A DNA stretch of 38,522 nucleotides, taken from the NCBI GenBank assembly GCA_023130895.1, contig JAGMAI010000030.1, positions 1 through 38,522 of the forward strand. The letters are read 5' to 3'. This DNA comes from Thermoplasmata archaeon. GTDB taxonomy: Archaea; Thermoplasmatota; Thermoplasmata; RBG-16-68-12; JAGMCJ01. Below are positions 18,241 to 36,816 of this stretch, piece by piece. Both the position numbers and the translations under genes were made by a program. Each line of letters starts with the position of its first letter. The stretch's first letter is position 1. The notes under the pieces were generated by a model that saw only the letters and a list, made by a program, of their open reading frames with translations, ran no database searches and was not told the origin of the DNA.

Positions 18241-18342
18241 GTCGGGGTGGCTCAGCCTGGTGGAGCGCCAGACTCATAGGGTTCGTTCGAAGAGCGCTCC
18301 TTGGAAATCTGGAGGTCGCGGGTTCAAAGCCCGCCCCCGACA
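18241..18342 (+). tRNA. Elongator tRNA-Met (CAT) with a 28-nt intron at the canonical 37/38 position (intron about 18279-18306)
   Basis: Acceptor GTCGGGG/CCCCGAC, D-arm GCTCAGCCTGGTGGAGC, anticodon stem CCAGA/TCTGG with CTCATA, T-arm GCGGG-TTCAAAG-CCCGC. G1-C72 argues against the initiator. Confidence 0.92.
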
Positions 18343-27138: not shown

Positions 27139-28476
27139 ATGATGCTCACCGCCTTGGAGAAGCCGACGGGCACCTTGAGAATCCTCGCGTACGTCCATCA
27201 GAACGAACGCGGGACTATCTCTGACTTCTACAGAAAGGTCGGGATAAACCAGGAATCCGCCTATTCCGCCCTGAGGAATCTCCTGCAGCTGGGCCTGATC
27301 TACGAGAAGGAGGAGGGCAAGTTCCCCTTCAGGAAGTTCTACTTGCTCACAAGCAAGGGGGAGCAGATCGCGGAGAAGCTGTCGTCCATAGAGGAAACGC
27401 TGACCGACACGGTATACGGCTACTATCACAGGCTCGAGGAGCTGGAGGCAGCGCCTGAGGCTCCTGAGAACCTTGCTGCCAGGCTCGAGATGATGCTCAA
27501 GATCCAGGATGTCTGCTTCGCGACCGGCGAGTGGGATTCCTGCATGGAGTACTGCGGGAAGTCGCTGGACCTCGCGCAGAGGTTGGATGACAAAGCCGCG
27601 CAGCTGAAGATCTTCAGAGATGTTGGGTGGATACACGAGAGGAGAAATGACTGGGATGCGGCCCGGAAGAACTTCGAGAGCGGCCTTGGGTTGGCGAGGG
27701 AGACGGGCGATTTGTCCGCCATGGCCAGCATATTCTACGACCTGGGGGCCATCCACGAGAGGAATGGAGAGTACGGCCGAGCGTTGGAGTTCTTTGACAA
27801 GTCAAGGCAAGCATCACAAGACGCCAAGAATGACTGGAATCTGGCAAGAGCTCTCTACGCCTTCGGGCGCGTGGAGGCTCAGAGAGGGAACTACCAGAAG
27901 TCCATTGGGTACATGGAGAAGTCCATCGGGATGCTCGAGGAGATCGGTGACCTGAGCGAGCTGGCCAAGGTCTGCACCGGAATGGGGGCCACGTGGTTCT
28001 ACCTGGACGACATGGACAAGACGATAGAGTACCACGAGAAGTGCATACGGACCGCCGAGAAGCTGGGGGATGCGACGGGGATCGGATATGGCCTGTCCAA
28101 CGCTGCCGAGGCCTACGCGCTGAAAGGCGACACGAAGAAGGCTTTTGAGTACCTTGAGAGGGCGCTCCTCATCTTCGAGAAGCTCAACGAGAGGATGATG
28201 ATTTCATCCGTGTACTCCCACTACGGTCAGACCCATCGACTCAGAGAGGAATGGAAGGAGTCGGAGGAGTACTTCAGCAAGAGCATCGCCCTGCTGGAAG
28301 AGCTCAATCTGCCCTACAACATGGCCGATGCCCACTACAAGTTCGGCGTCATGTACAAGGAGAAGGGTGAGCGGGACAACGCCGTGGAACACCTCTCCAA
28401 GGCGCACGAGATCTTCGAGAAGATCGGAAACAAGAGCATGATGGGGAAGGTGGCCGGTCTGAGAAACGGTCTATAG
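27139..28476 (+). CDS. N-terminal winged-HTH plus TPR-repeat transcription regulator
   Basis: wHTH (LRILAYV..GTISDF...SAYSALRNLLQLGLI...YLLTSKG) followed by about eight TPR repeats (YDLGAIHERNGEYGRALEFF etc.). Confidence 0.88.
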   Translation: MMLTALEKPTGTLRILAYVHQNERGTISDFYRKVGINQESAYSALRNLLQLGLIYEKEEGKFPFRKFYLLTSKGEQIAEKLSSIEETLTDTVYGYYHRLEELEAAPEAPENLAARLEMMLKIQDVCFATGEWDSCMEYCGKSLDLAQRLDDKAAQLKIFRDVGWIHERRNDWDAARKNFESGLGLARETGDLSAMASIFYDLGAIHERNGEYGRALEFFDKSRQASQDAKNDWNLARALYAFGRVEAQRGNYQKSIGYMEKSIGMLEEIGDLSELAKVCTGMGATWFYLDDMDKTIEYHEKCIRTAEKLGDATGIGYGLSNAAEAYALKGDTKKAFEYLERALLIFEKLNERMMISSVYSHYGQTHRLREEWKESEEYFSKSIALLEELNLPYNMADAHYKFGVMYKEKGERDNAVEHLSKAHEIFEKIGNKSMMGKVAGLRNGL

Positions 28477-28941
28477 CTAGACCAGCTCCGCCGGGAGCCA
28501 TGCCTGAGGCCAATCCTGGAAGTCCAGCGGGATAATGGCCTGTTCGTACTGAGGCCAGTCCTGATCGCTCAGCTCGATGACGAGCTCGCCCCAACCCTGG
28601 GGCCAGTCCTGATAGAAGACGAGCACATAGTCGTCATCCCCAAGCACCGGGATCAGAACCTCTTCTTCCTGCGATGCCGTTCGCAGCAGACCTCTTGCGG
28701 CCTTGGCTCCATCTGGCATCACAATGACAGGGATGTGTATGACATCCGGGTCCGACGTCGACAGGTTGATCGTGACATAGTCCTCGTAAACGTCCTGGAC
28801 CACCATGCCGATGTTCCCGTTGTCGAGGCTGTCAACGGGTACGGCTGTCCAGGCCCCGCCGGACGCTGTGGGTTGAAACGCTAGAGCAATCGATAGTACA
28901 ACGAGTGCAGTTGTTAGCTCCCTCTTCCTCGCCCACATCAC
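28477..28941 (-). CDS. Secreted precursor-like protein with three C-terminal QDWPQ repeats
   Basis: Signal peptide (RKRE, hydrophobic core, TASG); QDWPQ encoded at 28597-28611, 28549-28563 and 28504-28518; minus-strand TATAAATA at about 28963-28970. Confidence 0.75.
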   Translation of the reverse strand: MMWARKRELTTALVVLSIALAFQPTASGGAWTAVPVDSLDNGNIGMVVQDVYEDYVTINLSTSDPDVIHIPVIVMPDGAKAARGLLRTASQEEEVLIPVLGDDDYVLVFYQDWPQGWGELVIELSDQDWPQYEQAIIPLDFQDWPQAWLPAELV

Positions 28942-29164
28942 CCTTTTCTATGTTTGAGGCGGTATTTATAGATATCGAGGTTCGAAACGAGTTCCCTATG
29001 GCCTCCGACACATGATTCTGCTTGTCTGCGCAGTCGAAGTGCAGTCGCGCGAGAAGATCATGAGCGGACTGGACATTAGCCTCATCCTACCGTTTTATGT
29101 CCGTGCTATTATTCCGTATACCGAAAAACGATAACCTTTTATAATGTTCATGAGATTCATGGAT

Positions 29165-29486
29165 GTTGCGGCTTCACGGGAGGTTCAAGTCTTTGCGAGG
29201 AAGCCGCAAGATAGGAGAGGGGTCCGGTAGATGCCTCGCATGATGAGAACTCGGCCAACAAGCTTGCAATCCTTGAGGGAGTCGGTGACGACTCTTTCAG
29301 TCGCTCCCGCGAAGACACCCGCTTTTTTGGACGCAGAGGGTCGAAGACCCTACCAATCCAGTGGGAGTGAATCGGATTCGGGCGCCTTTACCCTCCAATC
29401 TGTGTGTTTGATCCCCGCCCTGACTGGTGATTGCATCCCCAGGATGGCCGACTGAATCTCACCCAAACCGGACCCCTCAGTGTTTT
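29165..29486 (+). ncRNA. Candidate large structured non-coding RNA of unknown class
   Basis: TTTTATAA at 29137; 10-bp hairpin 29166-29175/29200-29209; perfect 12-bp long-range stem 29217-29228/29467-29478 enclosing nested stems. Confidence 0.6.
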
Positions 29487-29544
29487 GCGTCCCTAGCACC
29501 TGTCTAGCAAACGTTTATTTCTCGCGAGAGTTTAACCTCGCACG

Positions 29545-30267
29545 ATGACCGCCCGCCTGGGTATTATCACGGGTTCTAAAATGGAGATATCCCGAATCCT
29601 GGAAGGGACCAGGGAGGAAAGGGTCGGTACGCCCTTTGGCGATCCCTCTTCGTCCGTTCAGATAGGTCTGATCGAGGAGAAGGAGGTCGCCTTCCTGTAC
29701 CGACACGGAGAAAGACACAGGCATCCTCCGCACAGGGTGAACCATCACGCGAACATACACGCCCTTTCGGACGCGGGCGTCACGAGGATCATCGGTGCAT
29801 CTTCAGTCGGCAGCATGAGGCAGGACATACGGCCCATGGATTTCGTCATCCCCTCGGACTTCGTGAGCTTCTGGAACATCCCAACATTCCACGACGAGGA
29901 CGTCGTTCACGTCACTCCCGTTCTCGATCCGGAACTCAGGAAGAGTCTCGTTGATTGCATCAGGGATCTGGGGTACACCGCCCATGATGGCGGTGTCTAC
30001 ATCCAAACAACTGGACCCAGGCTCGAGACCAAGGCCGAGATCCGCATCTTCAAGGAGTTCGGAGACCTGGTGGGCATGACGATGCCGTCCGAAGCCACTC
30101 TGGCGGTGGAGAAGGGCATCGCCTACGCGAGCATATGCTGCGTTGACAACTACTGCCATGGCATGGCGGACGAGGACCTCTCCTACGACGTGATTCTCGA
30201 GCATCAGATGAGGAATGCCGAGAGGCTGTTCAACATCATCACGAGGGTCATCGAGGTGCTTGCTTGA
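29545..30267 (+). CDS. mtnP: MTAP-family purine nucleoside phosphorylase, probably S-methyl-5'-thioinosine phosphorylase
   Basis: TPFG.PS, RHG..H..PPH.VN, GPRLETKAE, VGMT..EA.LA; VDNY (Asn) in place of the adenine-specific TDYD motif. Confidence 0.88.
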   Translation: MTARLGIITGSKMEISRILEGTREERVGTPFGDPSSSVQIGLIEEKEVAFLYRHGERHRHPPHRVNHHANIHALSDAGVTRIIGASSVGSMRQDIRPMDFVIPSDFVSFWNIPTFHDEDVVHVTPVLDPELRKSLVDCIRDLGYTAHDGGVYIQTTGPRLETKAEIRIFKEFGDLVGMTMPSEATLAVEKGIAYASICCVDNYCHGMADEDLSYDVILEHQMRNAERLFNIITRVIEVLA

Positions 30268-32215: not shown

Positions 32216-32911
32216 ATGGTATACGAAACTGAAGTAATCGCCATGAGGGACGTCATATCCCAAATGATGAAGACCTCGCAGAACAGGCTCCTAGTGAACA
32301 CTGACAGGGTCTACTTGGCGAAAACCAACCTCATCACGCTTAAGTCCCTTCTAGAGGAGAGAGGGCCCAGAGGAATTTTCTTGTCCATCAACCGGCCCTA
32401 TCACTACATGGCCCACCTGCTGAGGATCCACAAGGTCGACTACGAAGAGATGCTCTTCATCGACGCCGTCTCCAAGATATCTGGGGAGAGGAAGATGGAG
32501 TGGAAGCAGACCACGTTCTTGGACAGCCCGTTCCAGATTCCCAAGATATTCGAGGACCTGCAGCTGATCGGGAAGACCCCGGACGGCTCTACATCCATCA
32601 TCAAGATCATCGAGAGCGACTTCGTGGTGATAGACGACATTTCCGCGATCTTCCACTACAATGAGCTGGGAACCGGAAAGCGCTTCCTGAAGGAGTTCCT
32701 CGATGCTGTCGCGTCCAATCCGAAGTCCTTCACTGCGTTCGCGATTGACCGGGAGACCCAGAGGGATGTCTACGAGTTCCTGGCCGACAGCTCCGACAGA
32801 TTGGTGGACATGGGCAACGCAGCCTTCATGGAGGTTCCCAAGGAGCTCGAGGAAGAGCACGCCCCCATGGCACGCCCGTCAGACGGCGAGGGAGGGATGA
32901 TTCATGAATGA
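32216..32911 (+). CDS. Degenerate KaiC/RecA-fold protein lacking Walker A
   Basis: GIFLSINRPY, FIDAVS, FVVIDDISAIFHYN pattern of inactive RecA-superfamily partners; overlaps the next gene. Confidence 0.7.
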   Translation: MVYETEVIAMRDVISQMMKTSQNRLLVNTDRVYLAKTNLITLKSLLEERGPRGIFLSINRPYHYMAHLLRIHKVDYEEMLFIDAVSKISGERKMEWKQTTFLDSPFQIPKIFEDLQLIGKTPDGSTSIIKIIESDFVVIDDISAIFHYNELGTGKRFLKEFLDAVASNPKSFTAFAIDRETQRDVYEFLADSSDRLVDMGNAAFMEVPKELEEEHAPMARPSDGEGGMIHE

Positions 32912-33587
32912 CGCGATAATAAGACGGTCCAGCGGAACGCCTGGCCTGGATGAGATGATATCTGGAGGTTTCCCATTCCCCTCGGTTCTCCTCGTCGCTG
33001 GGAGTGCCGGGACGGGAAAGACGACGTTCGCTCAGAAGTTCCTCTTCGAGGGTGCCAAGAACGGAGAGCAGTGCATATTCTTCACGACGCTCAGCGAGCC
33101 CACCCAGTGGATGCTGAGATTCTCCTCCCAGTTCGAGTTCGTCGATCCAGAGTACTTCGGCAGGGAAATAATCTATATCGACATAGGGCACGACATAAGG
33201 GAGAGCGGCCCTCATGAGATCCTCGACATCCTGGACGAGAAGATCGCCGCGATCATGCCACAGAGGATAGTCATCGATCCGATCACCGTCGTTTGCGACT
33301 TCATCGAGAACAACTACAGGACATTCCTGTTCGATCTGGTCACCAGGCTGAAGAACTGGGATTGCGTGACGGTCCTGACGGGCGAGGTCGCTCCCGGTCA
33401 GCTTTATCCGCCGGAGATCGCCCATGCAGTGGATGGGATCGTCCTGCTCATGTACACCCATGAAGGCGAGGAGAGACGCAAGTACATCGAGGTCCTCAAG
33501 ATGAGGGGAACGAACCACGTCACCGGAAAGCAGTCAATAGACATCACAACCGAAGAGGGCATAGTCGTCCTCAAATCGAAGTTCTAG
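32904..33587 (+). CDS. Single-domain KaiC/RAD55-family ATPase
   Basis: SGTPGLDEMISGG, Walker A GSAGTGKT, Walker B IVIDP, DGIV, EVLKMRGT. Confidence 0.92.
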   Translation: MNDAIIRRSSGTPGLDEMISGGFPFPSVLLVAGSAGTGKTTFAQKFLFEGAKNGEQCIFFTTLSEPTQWMLRFSSQFEFVDPEYFGREIIYIDIGHDIRESGPHEILDILDEKIAAIMPQRIVIDPITVVCDFIENNYRTFLFDLVTRLKNWDCVTVLTGEVAPGQLYPPEIAHAVDGIVLLMYTHEGEERRKYIEVLKMRGTNHVTGKQSIDITTEEGIVVLKSKF

Positions 33588-35301: not shown

Positions 35302-36816
35302 CTAGATTATCGGTACTAGCACCGCCTGCGGATAGCCCTTCGAGTGATCGAAGGAAAGGGCGTGGAGCTCGGTGTAGGGTTTCTCGCCGTAGAGCACAAC
35401 TGAACCGTCTATGTTCTCGATTTTCAGGTGAGTATGGGCGAGATTCGCGAGCGGTGCTGTAGAAGAGGTCGTTGACGTAACGATTCCTATGAAGATGTCC
35501 TTCGCCTTTCTGATCGACGACATGTGACCTGCCATGTCCTCTATCACCTCGTGGCCGAAGACCGCCTCCAGGGTGTCGAACCCCATCAGGGACAGGATCG
35601 GACGCTCCGTCTGCGAGAGATGATACTCGATGTTGCTCCATTTCAGCTCGTTGTCGATGTCAGAACCCTCCATTGGGAGTGCTATCTTGGAACCCTCCAC
35701 AGAGGTTGTGGCGGACGGTTCGAACACGCGCATGCACCTCTCGAACGCTTCCTGGCCGACAAAAGGCATGATCTCGTCCCTCACCATCTCCGAGGAGGCC
35801 TTCTTCTCGGGGACGAACGCAACTCCCCTGCCAAGCGAGATGAAGTTCGACAAGAGCGAGGTCTTGATGAGGTCAGAGTACAGCGTGTCGACATTCCCGC
35901 CTATCTCCACAGCGACTATCGTACCCTTCTTGAACCCGCCTATCAGAGCGTCGAGCTGGTCGCTTCCCGTCGAGATCCAGTTCTCGGATATGTCGGGCAT
36001 GGGTTCCCAACTCGACTTCTCACGCGGGATCTCGATCTTCTCGAAGCCAAAGGTCTTGATTCTCCCCCCGTCCAGACTGTAGGCACATTTGTGCTGCCTA
36101 ATCTCCGTGCCGCGAAGCTTCTCGATCTTCATTATCCTCAGCCGTCTGCCTTCGTGTTCCTCGCTCGTGAACGTGATGACCCCGTCCCCAAGATAATCGA
36201 GCCGCGTCTCCCCAGGGCTCTCCAGCACATACAGGACATCGGACGAGGAGGTCTCGACCAGGTCCTTCTGGAGCGTGTTCATCAGCTTCGAGGGGTGAAT
36301 CCCGTATCTCTCCGCCAGTGCGTTGATGCTATCTATCAGTATGAGGCTCTTCTCTGGGAGGGTGTCCTCGACCACATCATATGCCCTGTCGATCTCGGGG
36401 AGGTCCGATCCAAGGTCCAGGATGAGGCTGGTCTCCGTGACCTCGCCCTCGCTTATCTTGTCGTAGATGCTGCTCTCGTCCTCCTCACCCATCTCTATCC
36501 GGCCCTCGAGCTTCTTGAGCTCCGTTCTGTCGACCTTGCCTTCCTCCTCCTCAGGCCTTTGGTCGAACCTCGTCGGGGCGATCCGCTTCTTGAACTCGAC
36601 TCTGTCCTTGAGCCAGGGGAACTGGTTGTACAAGGAATGATCGCTCACCCTGATTGACATGTAGTACGAGTTCTCGACGCTCCCCAGCTCCTCTGTCAGC
36701 TGCAGGGCGAACGTAGTCTTGCCCGTTCCCGCAGCACCCTTGACTATCAAGGAATGTCCGCCTGGCCCTTTGAAGAAGTCTAGCAGTGCATCAGGAATAC
36801 CCTTCTCTTCTTTCAT
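35302..36816 (-). CDS. GvpD-like two-domain KaiC/RecA-superfamily ATPase
   Basis: SLIVKGAAGTGKTTFAL, LILIDSI, LDYLGDGVI, IEKLRG; second domain STGSDQLDALIGG with a degenerate P-loop. Confidence 0.85.
   Translation of the reverse strand: MKEEKGIPDALLDFFKGPGGHSLIVKGAAGTGKTTFALQLTEELGSVENSYYMSIRVSDHSLYNQFPWLKDRVEFKKRIAPTRFDQRPEEEEGKVDRTELKKLEGRIEMGEEDESSIYDKISEGEVTETSLILDLGSDLPEIDRAYDVVEDTLPEKSLILIDSINALAERYGIHPSKLMNTLQKDLVETSSSDVLYVLESPGETRLDYLGDGVITFTSEEHEGRRLRIMKIEKLRGTEIRQHKCAYSLDGGRIKTFGFEKIEIPREKSSWEPMPDISENWISTGSDQLDALIGGFKKGTIVAVEIGGNVDTLYSDLIKTSLLSNFISLGRGVAFVPEKKASSEMVRDEIMPFVGQEAFERCMRVFEPSATTSVEGSKIALPMEGSDIDNELKWSNIEYHLSQTERPILSLMGFDTLEAVFGHEVIEDMAGHMSSIRKAKDIFIGIVTSTTSSTAPLANLAHTHLKIENIDGSVVLYGEKPYTELHALSFDHSKGYPQAVLVPII

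Follow-up and report, generated by a model that had tools for sequence, protein, structure and literature searches.

Organization of the mtnP locus

The window, that is the whole stretch of 38,522 nt analysed here (contig JAGMAI010000030.1, assembly GCA_023130895.1), belongs to a Thermoplasmata archaeon whose assembly comprises 2.06 Mb in 228 contigs and is about 84% complete. On the plus strand, between the divergent gene orf154 and mtnP, it carries a gene for a structured RNA of about 315 nt (Table 1). The gene order is constant in the six species of the genus whose contigs are long enough: a TPR protein gene (+), orf154 (-), the RNA (+), mtnP (+) and an amidohydrolase gene (+), with the RNA always sitting between orf154 and mtnP. 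The predicted orf154 product, a small protein, matches no Pfam family. Its gene was found only in this genus (7 of the 79 genomes of the order; in the species that lacks it the contig breaks at this place), and it changes more rapidly than the genes beside it (identity 52-57%, theirs 75-80%). The co-distribution and adjacency of the two suggest that orf154 may belong with the RNA.

Across the order, mtnP and the amidohydrolase gene stay paired, and mtnP itself occurs in 71 of the 79 genomes. In other families, 21 mtnP loci include enough upstream sequence to compare, and most of these have a long ORF immediately before mtnP; a covariance model of the RNA (R1, see below) matched nothing upstream of mtnP in 23 loci from those families. 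The RNA and orf154 thus look like a genus-specific insertion.

Several other features of the region were recorded. The TPR protein has relatives in the family of this archaeon and in one other family of the order, where each genome encodes several paralogues at 29-36% identity; an orthologue at 79% identity or more was found only in the genus. Between the promoters of orf154 and the RNA lies an ORF of 40 codons that is 68-100% identical at five of the eight loci, those of the closer species, and that may reflect mere conservation of the promoter region. Beyond the salvage operon that begins with mtnP, a few kb further downstream, come a KaiC-type ATPase gene and the gene of a GvpD-like P-loop protein. 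The window also includes a tRNA gene whose anticodon loop is interrupted by a 30-nt intron, which fits an archaeal origin. No gene for an RNA-binding protein was found near the RNA.

Table 1. Features of the RNA locus and RNA-library contigs that cover it (window coordinates).
Feature	Position	Strand	Description
tRNA gene	18241-18342	+	30-nt intron in the anticodon loop
TPR protein gene	27139-28476	+	weak TrmB-like HTH at the N-terminus
orf154	28477-28941	-	divergent neighbour; hydrophobic signal-like N-terminus, three QDWPQ repeats
40-codon ORF	29012-29134	+	between the orf154 and RNA promoters
Promoter of the RNA	29114-29144	+	near-invariant upstream element (29114-29136) and BRE/TATA; nearly all positions invariant in eight species
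TATA TTTTATAA	29137-29144	+	BRE/TATA, from reading of the sequence
RNA	29166-29480	+
P0	29166-29209	+	10-bp 5' hairpin with 24-nt loop; 29166-29175 pairs with 29200-29209; 95.7% paired
P0 loop motif GGGAGG	29178-29183	+	invariant in the eight-species alignment
P1	29217-29228 with 29467-29478	+	perfect 12-bp closing helix (helix 2); 94.8% paired
P2	29231-29241	+	small hairpin ATGC-CTC-GCAT; contains the ATG of the 74-codon ORF
74-codon ORF	29231-29455	+	ATG inside P2; open in 8/8 species (72-74 codons); probably incidental
P3	29244-29248 with 29457-29461	+	from duplex folds of each species
P4	29251-29257 with 29445-29451	+	helix 4
P5	29265-29271 with 29429-29435	+	closes the four-way junction; 98.6% paired, one compensatory pair
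P6	29272-29300	+	hairpin with GNRA tetraloop (29285-29288); from the alignment and the covariation count
P7	29301-29370	+	branched arm (helices 7-10) with U-rich junction (T6, 29323-29328) and hairpin 29337-29351
P8 stem	29380-29384 with 29416-29420	+	5 bp; carries the 31-nt loop
Core	29380-29445	+	near-invariant 66 nt: P8 stem, 31-nt loop, junction, P5 3' strand, C-rich internal loop
Probable 3' end	29479-29490	+	short T-run (29483-29486) after P1
mtnP TATA	29514-29520	+	conserved
KaiC-type ATPase gene	32904-33587	+
GvpD-like P-loop protein gene	35302-36816	-
Run X17	29175-29472		one 298-nt contig, depth 55.7, neither flank covered
Run X16	29178-29328 and 29302-29452		151 nt each
Run X18	29338-29492		depth 43.9; separate lower-depth contigs on orf154 and mtnP
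Run X15	29337-29550		crosses the mtnP start

The RNA adopts a conserved, covarying fold

The locus had been predicted, from one sequence, to encode a highly structured, independent non-coding RNA of about 315 nt and of no recognizable class, with a 5' hairpin followed by a domain that has a perfect 12-bp closing helix. Both parts are present (P0 and P1), and on reading of the sequence every element listed in the original prediction was found at its place or adjoining it. The nested stems TGAGA/TCTCA, TCGGCCA/TGGCCGA and TGCAATC/GATTGCA correspond to P3, P4 and P5; of the two internal hairpins, that with the GNRA loop is P6, and AGGGTC/GACCCT is a hairpin of the P7 arm. The internal T6 run, raised at the time as a caveat, is indeed there, and contigs from RNA libraries read across it.

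The plus strand folds with a minimum free energy of -135.3 kcal/mol (z -3.7), which none of 100 shuffled sequences equalled; the fold of the minus strand is weaker (z -2.65). We assign the gene to the plus strand, to which the many G-U pairs, the TATA located upstream and the stronger z-score all point.

Homologues from eight species of one genus were compared in a trimmed alignment with 81 consensus pairs. RNAalifold recovered P0, P1, P2, P4, P5, P6, the branched P7 and P8 from these eight sequences. Within this consensus 95.3% of the alignment cells are paired, against a mean of 92.7% in shuffled alignments (0 of 500 reach the observed value) and 37-48% in controls where the structure was slid along the alignment. 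Both sides change in 13 of the 81 pairs, against a shuffle mean of 7.3 (again 0 of 500) and 2-5 in the slid controls; the latter are the fairer comparison, since relatedness among the sequences inflates the shuffle test, and the statistics are limited by the fact that only eight related sequences exist. The compensatory changes are far above the chance expectation. They are spread over the molecule: three pairs of P0 (helix 1) change on both sides, P1 has one compensatory pair (A-U in four species, G-C in three), two of the four counted pairs of P4 are compensatory (A-U in four species, G-C in four), as are three of six in helix 10 of the P7 arm. The P6 loop is a GNRA tetraloop in seven of the eight species (GTGA, GAGA or GAAA) and CCAA in the remaining one, and the pair that closes it is G-C in five species and A-U in three.

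P3 was missed by RNAalifold because MAFFT misaligns its 3' side. This helix covaries nevertheless: it reads TGAGA/TCTCA in five species, and the three others have different, still complementary letters that form a longer helix. Moreover, the minimum-energy folds of the divergent sequences, each computed independently, reproduce the same architecture. The comparison of homologues therefore supports the predicted fold, P3 included.

The RNA has its own promoter and is covered by RNA-library contigs

The predicted BRE/TATA is present, and the promoter is almost invariant in the eight species. The conservation also takes in the 23 nt or so just upstream of BRE/TATA, which may bind a transcription factor. 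From the centre of the TATA to the first nucleotide of P0 the distance is about 25 nt, and because the same spacing is seen at the SRP RNA gene of this genome, we placed the start of the RNA at about 29166. No promoter motif common to this gene and the SRP RNA or RNase P RNA genes was seen. At the other end, a T-rich tract follows P1 in most of the eight species. The transcript would thus extend from about 29166 to 29480-29490.

Expression had been proposed as a check on the gene, and contigs assembled from metatranscriptomes of three studies do cover it. Six runs recorded as RNA carry part of the stretch, and four of these, which represent the three studies, were compared with the window (Table 1); the runs with the locus, among them also 14 metagenome runs of DNA type, are labelled as cold-seep and marine-sediment metagenomes. 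Such contigs give neither strand, nor ends, nor level, and the libraries may contain DNA; parts of the window that no RNA contig covers were given no weight. The longest contig inside the element, of 298 nt, corresponds to almost the entire RNA. Contigs of two studies begin at 29175 and 29178, 9-12 nt past the predicted start, and this agreement to within 3 nt gives a weak hint of a discrete transcript; contigs end at 29472 and 29492, close to the predicted 3' end.

The fold, its covariation, the coverage by RNA-library contigs and the lack of a match in Rfam (next section) all support the prediction of an independent structured RNA. We conclude that the locus is a stand-alone, separately transcribed gene for a folded RNA, with its own BRE/TATA promoter.

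The RNA belongs to no known family

We compared the sequence with the 4227 models of Rfam 15, both at the gathering thresholds and at E<=10. At the gathering thresholds, the only match in the whole window was the tRNA gene mentioned above (54 bits), which lies elsewhere. In a search of 28950-29650 at E<=10, no match overlapped the RNA, and four homologues, the three most divergent among them, matched no family either; the only matches returned were two unrelated single ones, of 11.5 and 16.2 bits, both outside the RNA. The scan suggested with the original prediction thus leaves the RNA outside the known families.

The prediction had also failed to recognize the signatures of SRP RNA or RNase P RNA. 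Neither model matches here, and the genome encodes canonical archaeal copies of both on other contigs: RNase P RNA (RF00373) at G000:C204:7585-7858 (214.6 bits) and SRP RNA (RF01857) at G000:C51:4070-4379 (198.1 bits). Both identities are therefore ruled out. The model of type T RNase P RNA (RF02357) matched nowhere in the genome, and its control search likewise had no match. Downstream of the genuine gene, at a distance of about 1 kb, there is a second, weak match to the archaeal RNase P model (G000:C204:8898-9043; 47.2 bits against a cut-off of 84), which may be either a partial duplicate or due to chance. The new RNA resembles archaeal SRP and RNase P RNAs in being a stand-alone multi-helix RNA of about 300 nt with a strong TATA promoter, abundant in RNA libraries; it differs from them in that one hairpin, at its 5' end, stands outside the closing helix, and in being confined to one genus, where these two are universal.

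One element of the prediction did not survive the comparison of species. Box C-like ATGATGA (29240) and box D-like CTGA (29452) face each other in the source species, as in archaeal box C/D sRNAs, and had been read as a possible k-turn, but unrelated letters replace them in three of the eight species (G004, G006 and G007). Manual reading found no conserved tandem G-A arrangement around P5 or P8, and no Rfam C/D family matches. The RNA also differs from box C/D sRNAs in size and architecture and has none of their 12-nt guide spacings. It is not a box C/D sRNA.

Large orphan structured RNAs are known from bacteria and phages, among them OLE, GOLLD, ROOL and raiA, all of which are in Rfam. Like them, the RNA is long and intricately folded, with covariation support and a conserved unpaired core, and it shares their narrow or patchy distribution and the absence of an assigned function at the time of discovery. 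Unlike them, it is archaeal, single-copy and syntenic, without a prophage or mobile context; it matches none of them in sequence or structure and is smaller than GOLLD, ROOL and OLE. In those portions of the literature that were accessible to full-text search, we found no description of such an RNA. The family is new and has not been described before, a newness that covers the family and not yet its mechanism.

The RNA was found in one genus only

The RNA is present as a single copy in the source genome and once in each relative, and it was found in all eight species of one uncultured Thermoplasmata genus, at about 72-98% identity. A DNA search of 41 genomes recovered it from the source genome and, at 73-97% identity, from the seven other species, and from none of the 33 genomes that represent six other families of the order. 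Its single copy and constant flanking genes rule out the multi-copy, MITE-like mobile repeat that had been named as one of the findings that would overturn the call.

R1, the covariance model built from the eight sequences (316 positions, 81 pairs), scores 284-376 bits on the members of the genus. Run on 79 genomes of the order, it gave only one match, of 21 bits, among the 71 outside the genus; in a run on 151 genomes of the class it gave only three (14.6-20.9 bits) in the 146 that lie outside. No Rfam match was found at the sites of these weak matches, and one that we read consists of a 31-nt match to the region of the P8 loop with only scattered identity. A 29-mer from the core, with up to three mismatches, was present in all seven genus genomes among the 401 genomes of the class searched and in none of the other 394, which represent 103 other genera. 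In a species-level genome collection, an exact 21-mer matched six Thermoplasmata MAGs, which are the same genus genomes (their R1 scores are identical), and three bacterial loci by chance. A gapped pattern of the core gave a single chance match in metagenome contigs and none in viral contigs. These genome sets are samples of their groups, and the absence holds for the genomes searched.

An invariant core and a possible contact with the 5' hairpin

Conservation is concentrated in a 66-nt core, in which about 58 positions are identical across the eight species, while the RNAs as a whole are 72% identical. The P8 loop within it contains CCCTCC and TTGATCCCC. In every reading frame, the core has zero changes at third codon positions; in mtnP of the same species, 51-57% of third codon positions differ (pS 0.69-0.77). 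This contrast indicates that the core is under selection on its nucleotides.

The P0 loop contains the invariant GGGAGG followed by TTCAA, and is complementary to CCTCC or to TTGATCC of the P8 loop. Only two changes occur in this stretch, both in one species, and both remain wobble-compatible with the P8 loop. The complementarity of the two sequences suggests that the G-rich P0 loop probably docks on the P8 loop of the core; the contact is put forward as a proposal because invariant letters cannot covary.

Proposed role of the RNA and alternative explanations

The reading that we favour, at slightly better than even confidence, is that the locus is a stand-alone gene for a compact non-coding RNA of a new family, which acts in trans through its invariant core, a partner-binding surface. 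The transcript would form P0 and then the P1-closed domain, which encloses the stacked helices P3-P5 and the four-way junction of P6, P7 and P8. The helices would provide the scaffold, free to change by compensatory substitutions, and the 66-nt core, with the P8 apical loop and the adjacent C-rich single strands, would be the working part. Docking of the P0 loop would probably bring the 5' hairpin onto this core. The core would bind a trans-acting partner, most likely a protein, in a lineage-specific ribonucleoprotein; a G-rich RNA would be the alternative partner. We think of a protein first because the invariance exceeds what a base-pairing seed needs and because no RNA target was found. A core housekeeping role is hard to square with the confinement of the RNA to one genus.

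Searches for an RNA target bear directly on a second possibility, that of a base-pairing regulator. Three invariant C-rich motifs in the core, CCCTCC and two copies of TCCCC, are single-stranded and could mimic the anti-Shine-Dalgarno sequence of 16S rRNA (which in a sister species ends in GATCACCTCCT), pairing with the G-rich ribosome-binding sites of mRNAs. Motifs resembling the Shine-Dalgarno sequence are modestly enriched upstream of long ORFs of this genome (18% against a background of 10%), although this figure rests on crude start-site calls. In Staphylococcus, RNAIII and RsaE/RoxS expose several C-rich motifs able to pair with Shine-Dalgarno-like sequences, and RNAIII further resembles the present RNA in being long and in having a small ORF. 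There is no homology between these RNAs and the one described here, whose C-rich motifs are embedded in a 66-nt invariant block where theirs lie in short hairpin loops, and no target for it was found. Short-match searches for pairing with the rest of the genome yielded only chance 12-15-mers. The best pairing with 16S rRNA was a 10-mer (E 0.37) from an unconserved segment, and pairing with the 5' region or mRNA of orf154 was no better than shuffled in six species (z -0.3 to +1.4). The invariance also extends far beyond the needs of a seed. We therefore regard a base-pairing regulator as unlikely.

Somewhat less probable still is a coding or dual-function transcript, in which the 74-codon ORF would be translated and the core would specify the conserved C-terminal part of the resulting small protein. 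The frame, which the original prediction had not noted, is open in all eight species: a 3-nt deletion in one of them keeps it, and a 1-nt insertion alters only the last few residues. When the 140 changes inferred on the tree by Fitch parsimony were placed at random, all eight frames stayed open in about 0.3% of trials (P about 0.003, before correcting for 3-6 frames), and the chance of remaining open per deep lineage was 15-28%. A purine-rich GGAG/GAGG also lies 9-14 nt before the ATG. The pattern of substitution speaks against coding. A protein-coding gene would have a pN/pS well below 1 and free synonymous change; between deep pairs, the pN/pS of this frame is 0.77-1.15 with a pS of 0.17-0.32, whereas the values for mtnP are 0.16-0.20 and 0.69-0.77. 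The part of the ORF that appears conserved has no synonymous changes, a sign of selection on the RNA. In addition, a second plus-strand frame is also nearly open in all species, the minus strand has ORFs of 85-93 codons in three of the eight, and the fold hides the start codon in P2 and the purine-rich stretch in P1. The product has no Pfam match and shares fewer than three 5-residue words with any protein in 5.8 billion clusters. Judged by its substitutions, the ORF evolves without amino-acid constraint and is probably incidental.

The position of the RNA directly upstream of mtnP, on the same strand, raises the possibility of a cis-acting, riboswitch-like leader of the purine/methylthioadenosine salvage operon (mtnP, amidohydrolase, phosphoribosyltransferase). 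Conserved unpaired cores are typical of ligand pockets, the RNA has such a core, and one RNA contig spans 29337-29550 and so runs into mtnP. The original prediction had judged a leader less likely because mtnP has its own TATA, and this reasoning holds up: that TATA is conserved, and its position 25-31 nt upstream of the ATG at 29545 suits an mRNA with almost no leader. The fold is self-contained, closed entirely by P1, which ends at 29478, and no alternative pairing reaches the mtnP start. Contigs over the RNA stop short of mtnP in three of the four RNA runs. Other families of the order also have the mtnP-amidohydrolase pair, yet R1 matches nothing upstream of it in the loci searched there. 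At 315 nt, the RNA is also, to our knowledge, longer than every known aptamer. The TATA of mtnP itself and the self-contained fold thus make an mtnP leader very improbable.

Weakest of all is the idea of a new ribozyme whose active site is the core. The compact multi-helix architecture, the GNRA loop and the invariant unpaired core of about 66 nt might suggest one, but no known ribozyme family matches, no substrate is evident, and no sign of processing appears: the runs have no joints or internal contig ends in common.

More speculatively, the RNA could be the first 'ornate' RNA specific to archaea that itself performs a biochemical task, as a ribozyme, a ligand sensor or the RNA subunit of a new ribonucleoprotein, with the core as active or binding site. 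It would then have arisen when the genus originated, together with the neighbouring orf154 as a gene for a secreted repeat protein. We offer this broader view tentatively and consider it rather doubtful.

Significance

The narrow distribution of the RNA limits its general importance. If the universal RNAs and the guide RNAs are set aside, archaea have yielded very few large structured RNAs, and their uncultured lineages almost none. This one is clearly supported by the comparison of species and has evidence of expression, and its core equals a ribozyme or riboswitch core in conservation. The RNA is young, being confined to one genus, and so can serve to study the origin of a complex RNA fold. 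It also provides a defined target for biochemistry on archaea that are abundant in cold seeps and marine sediments.
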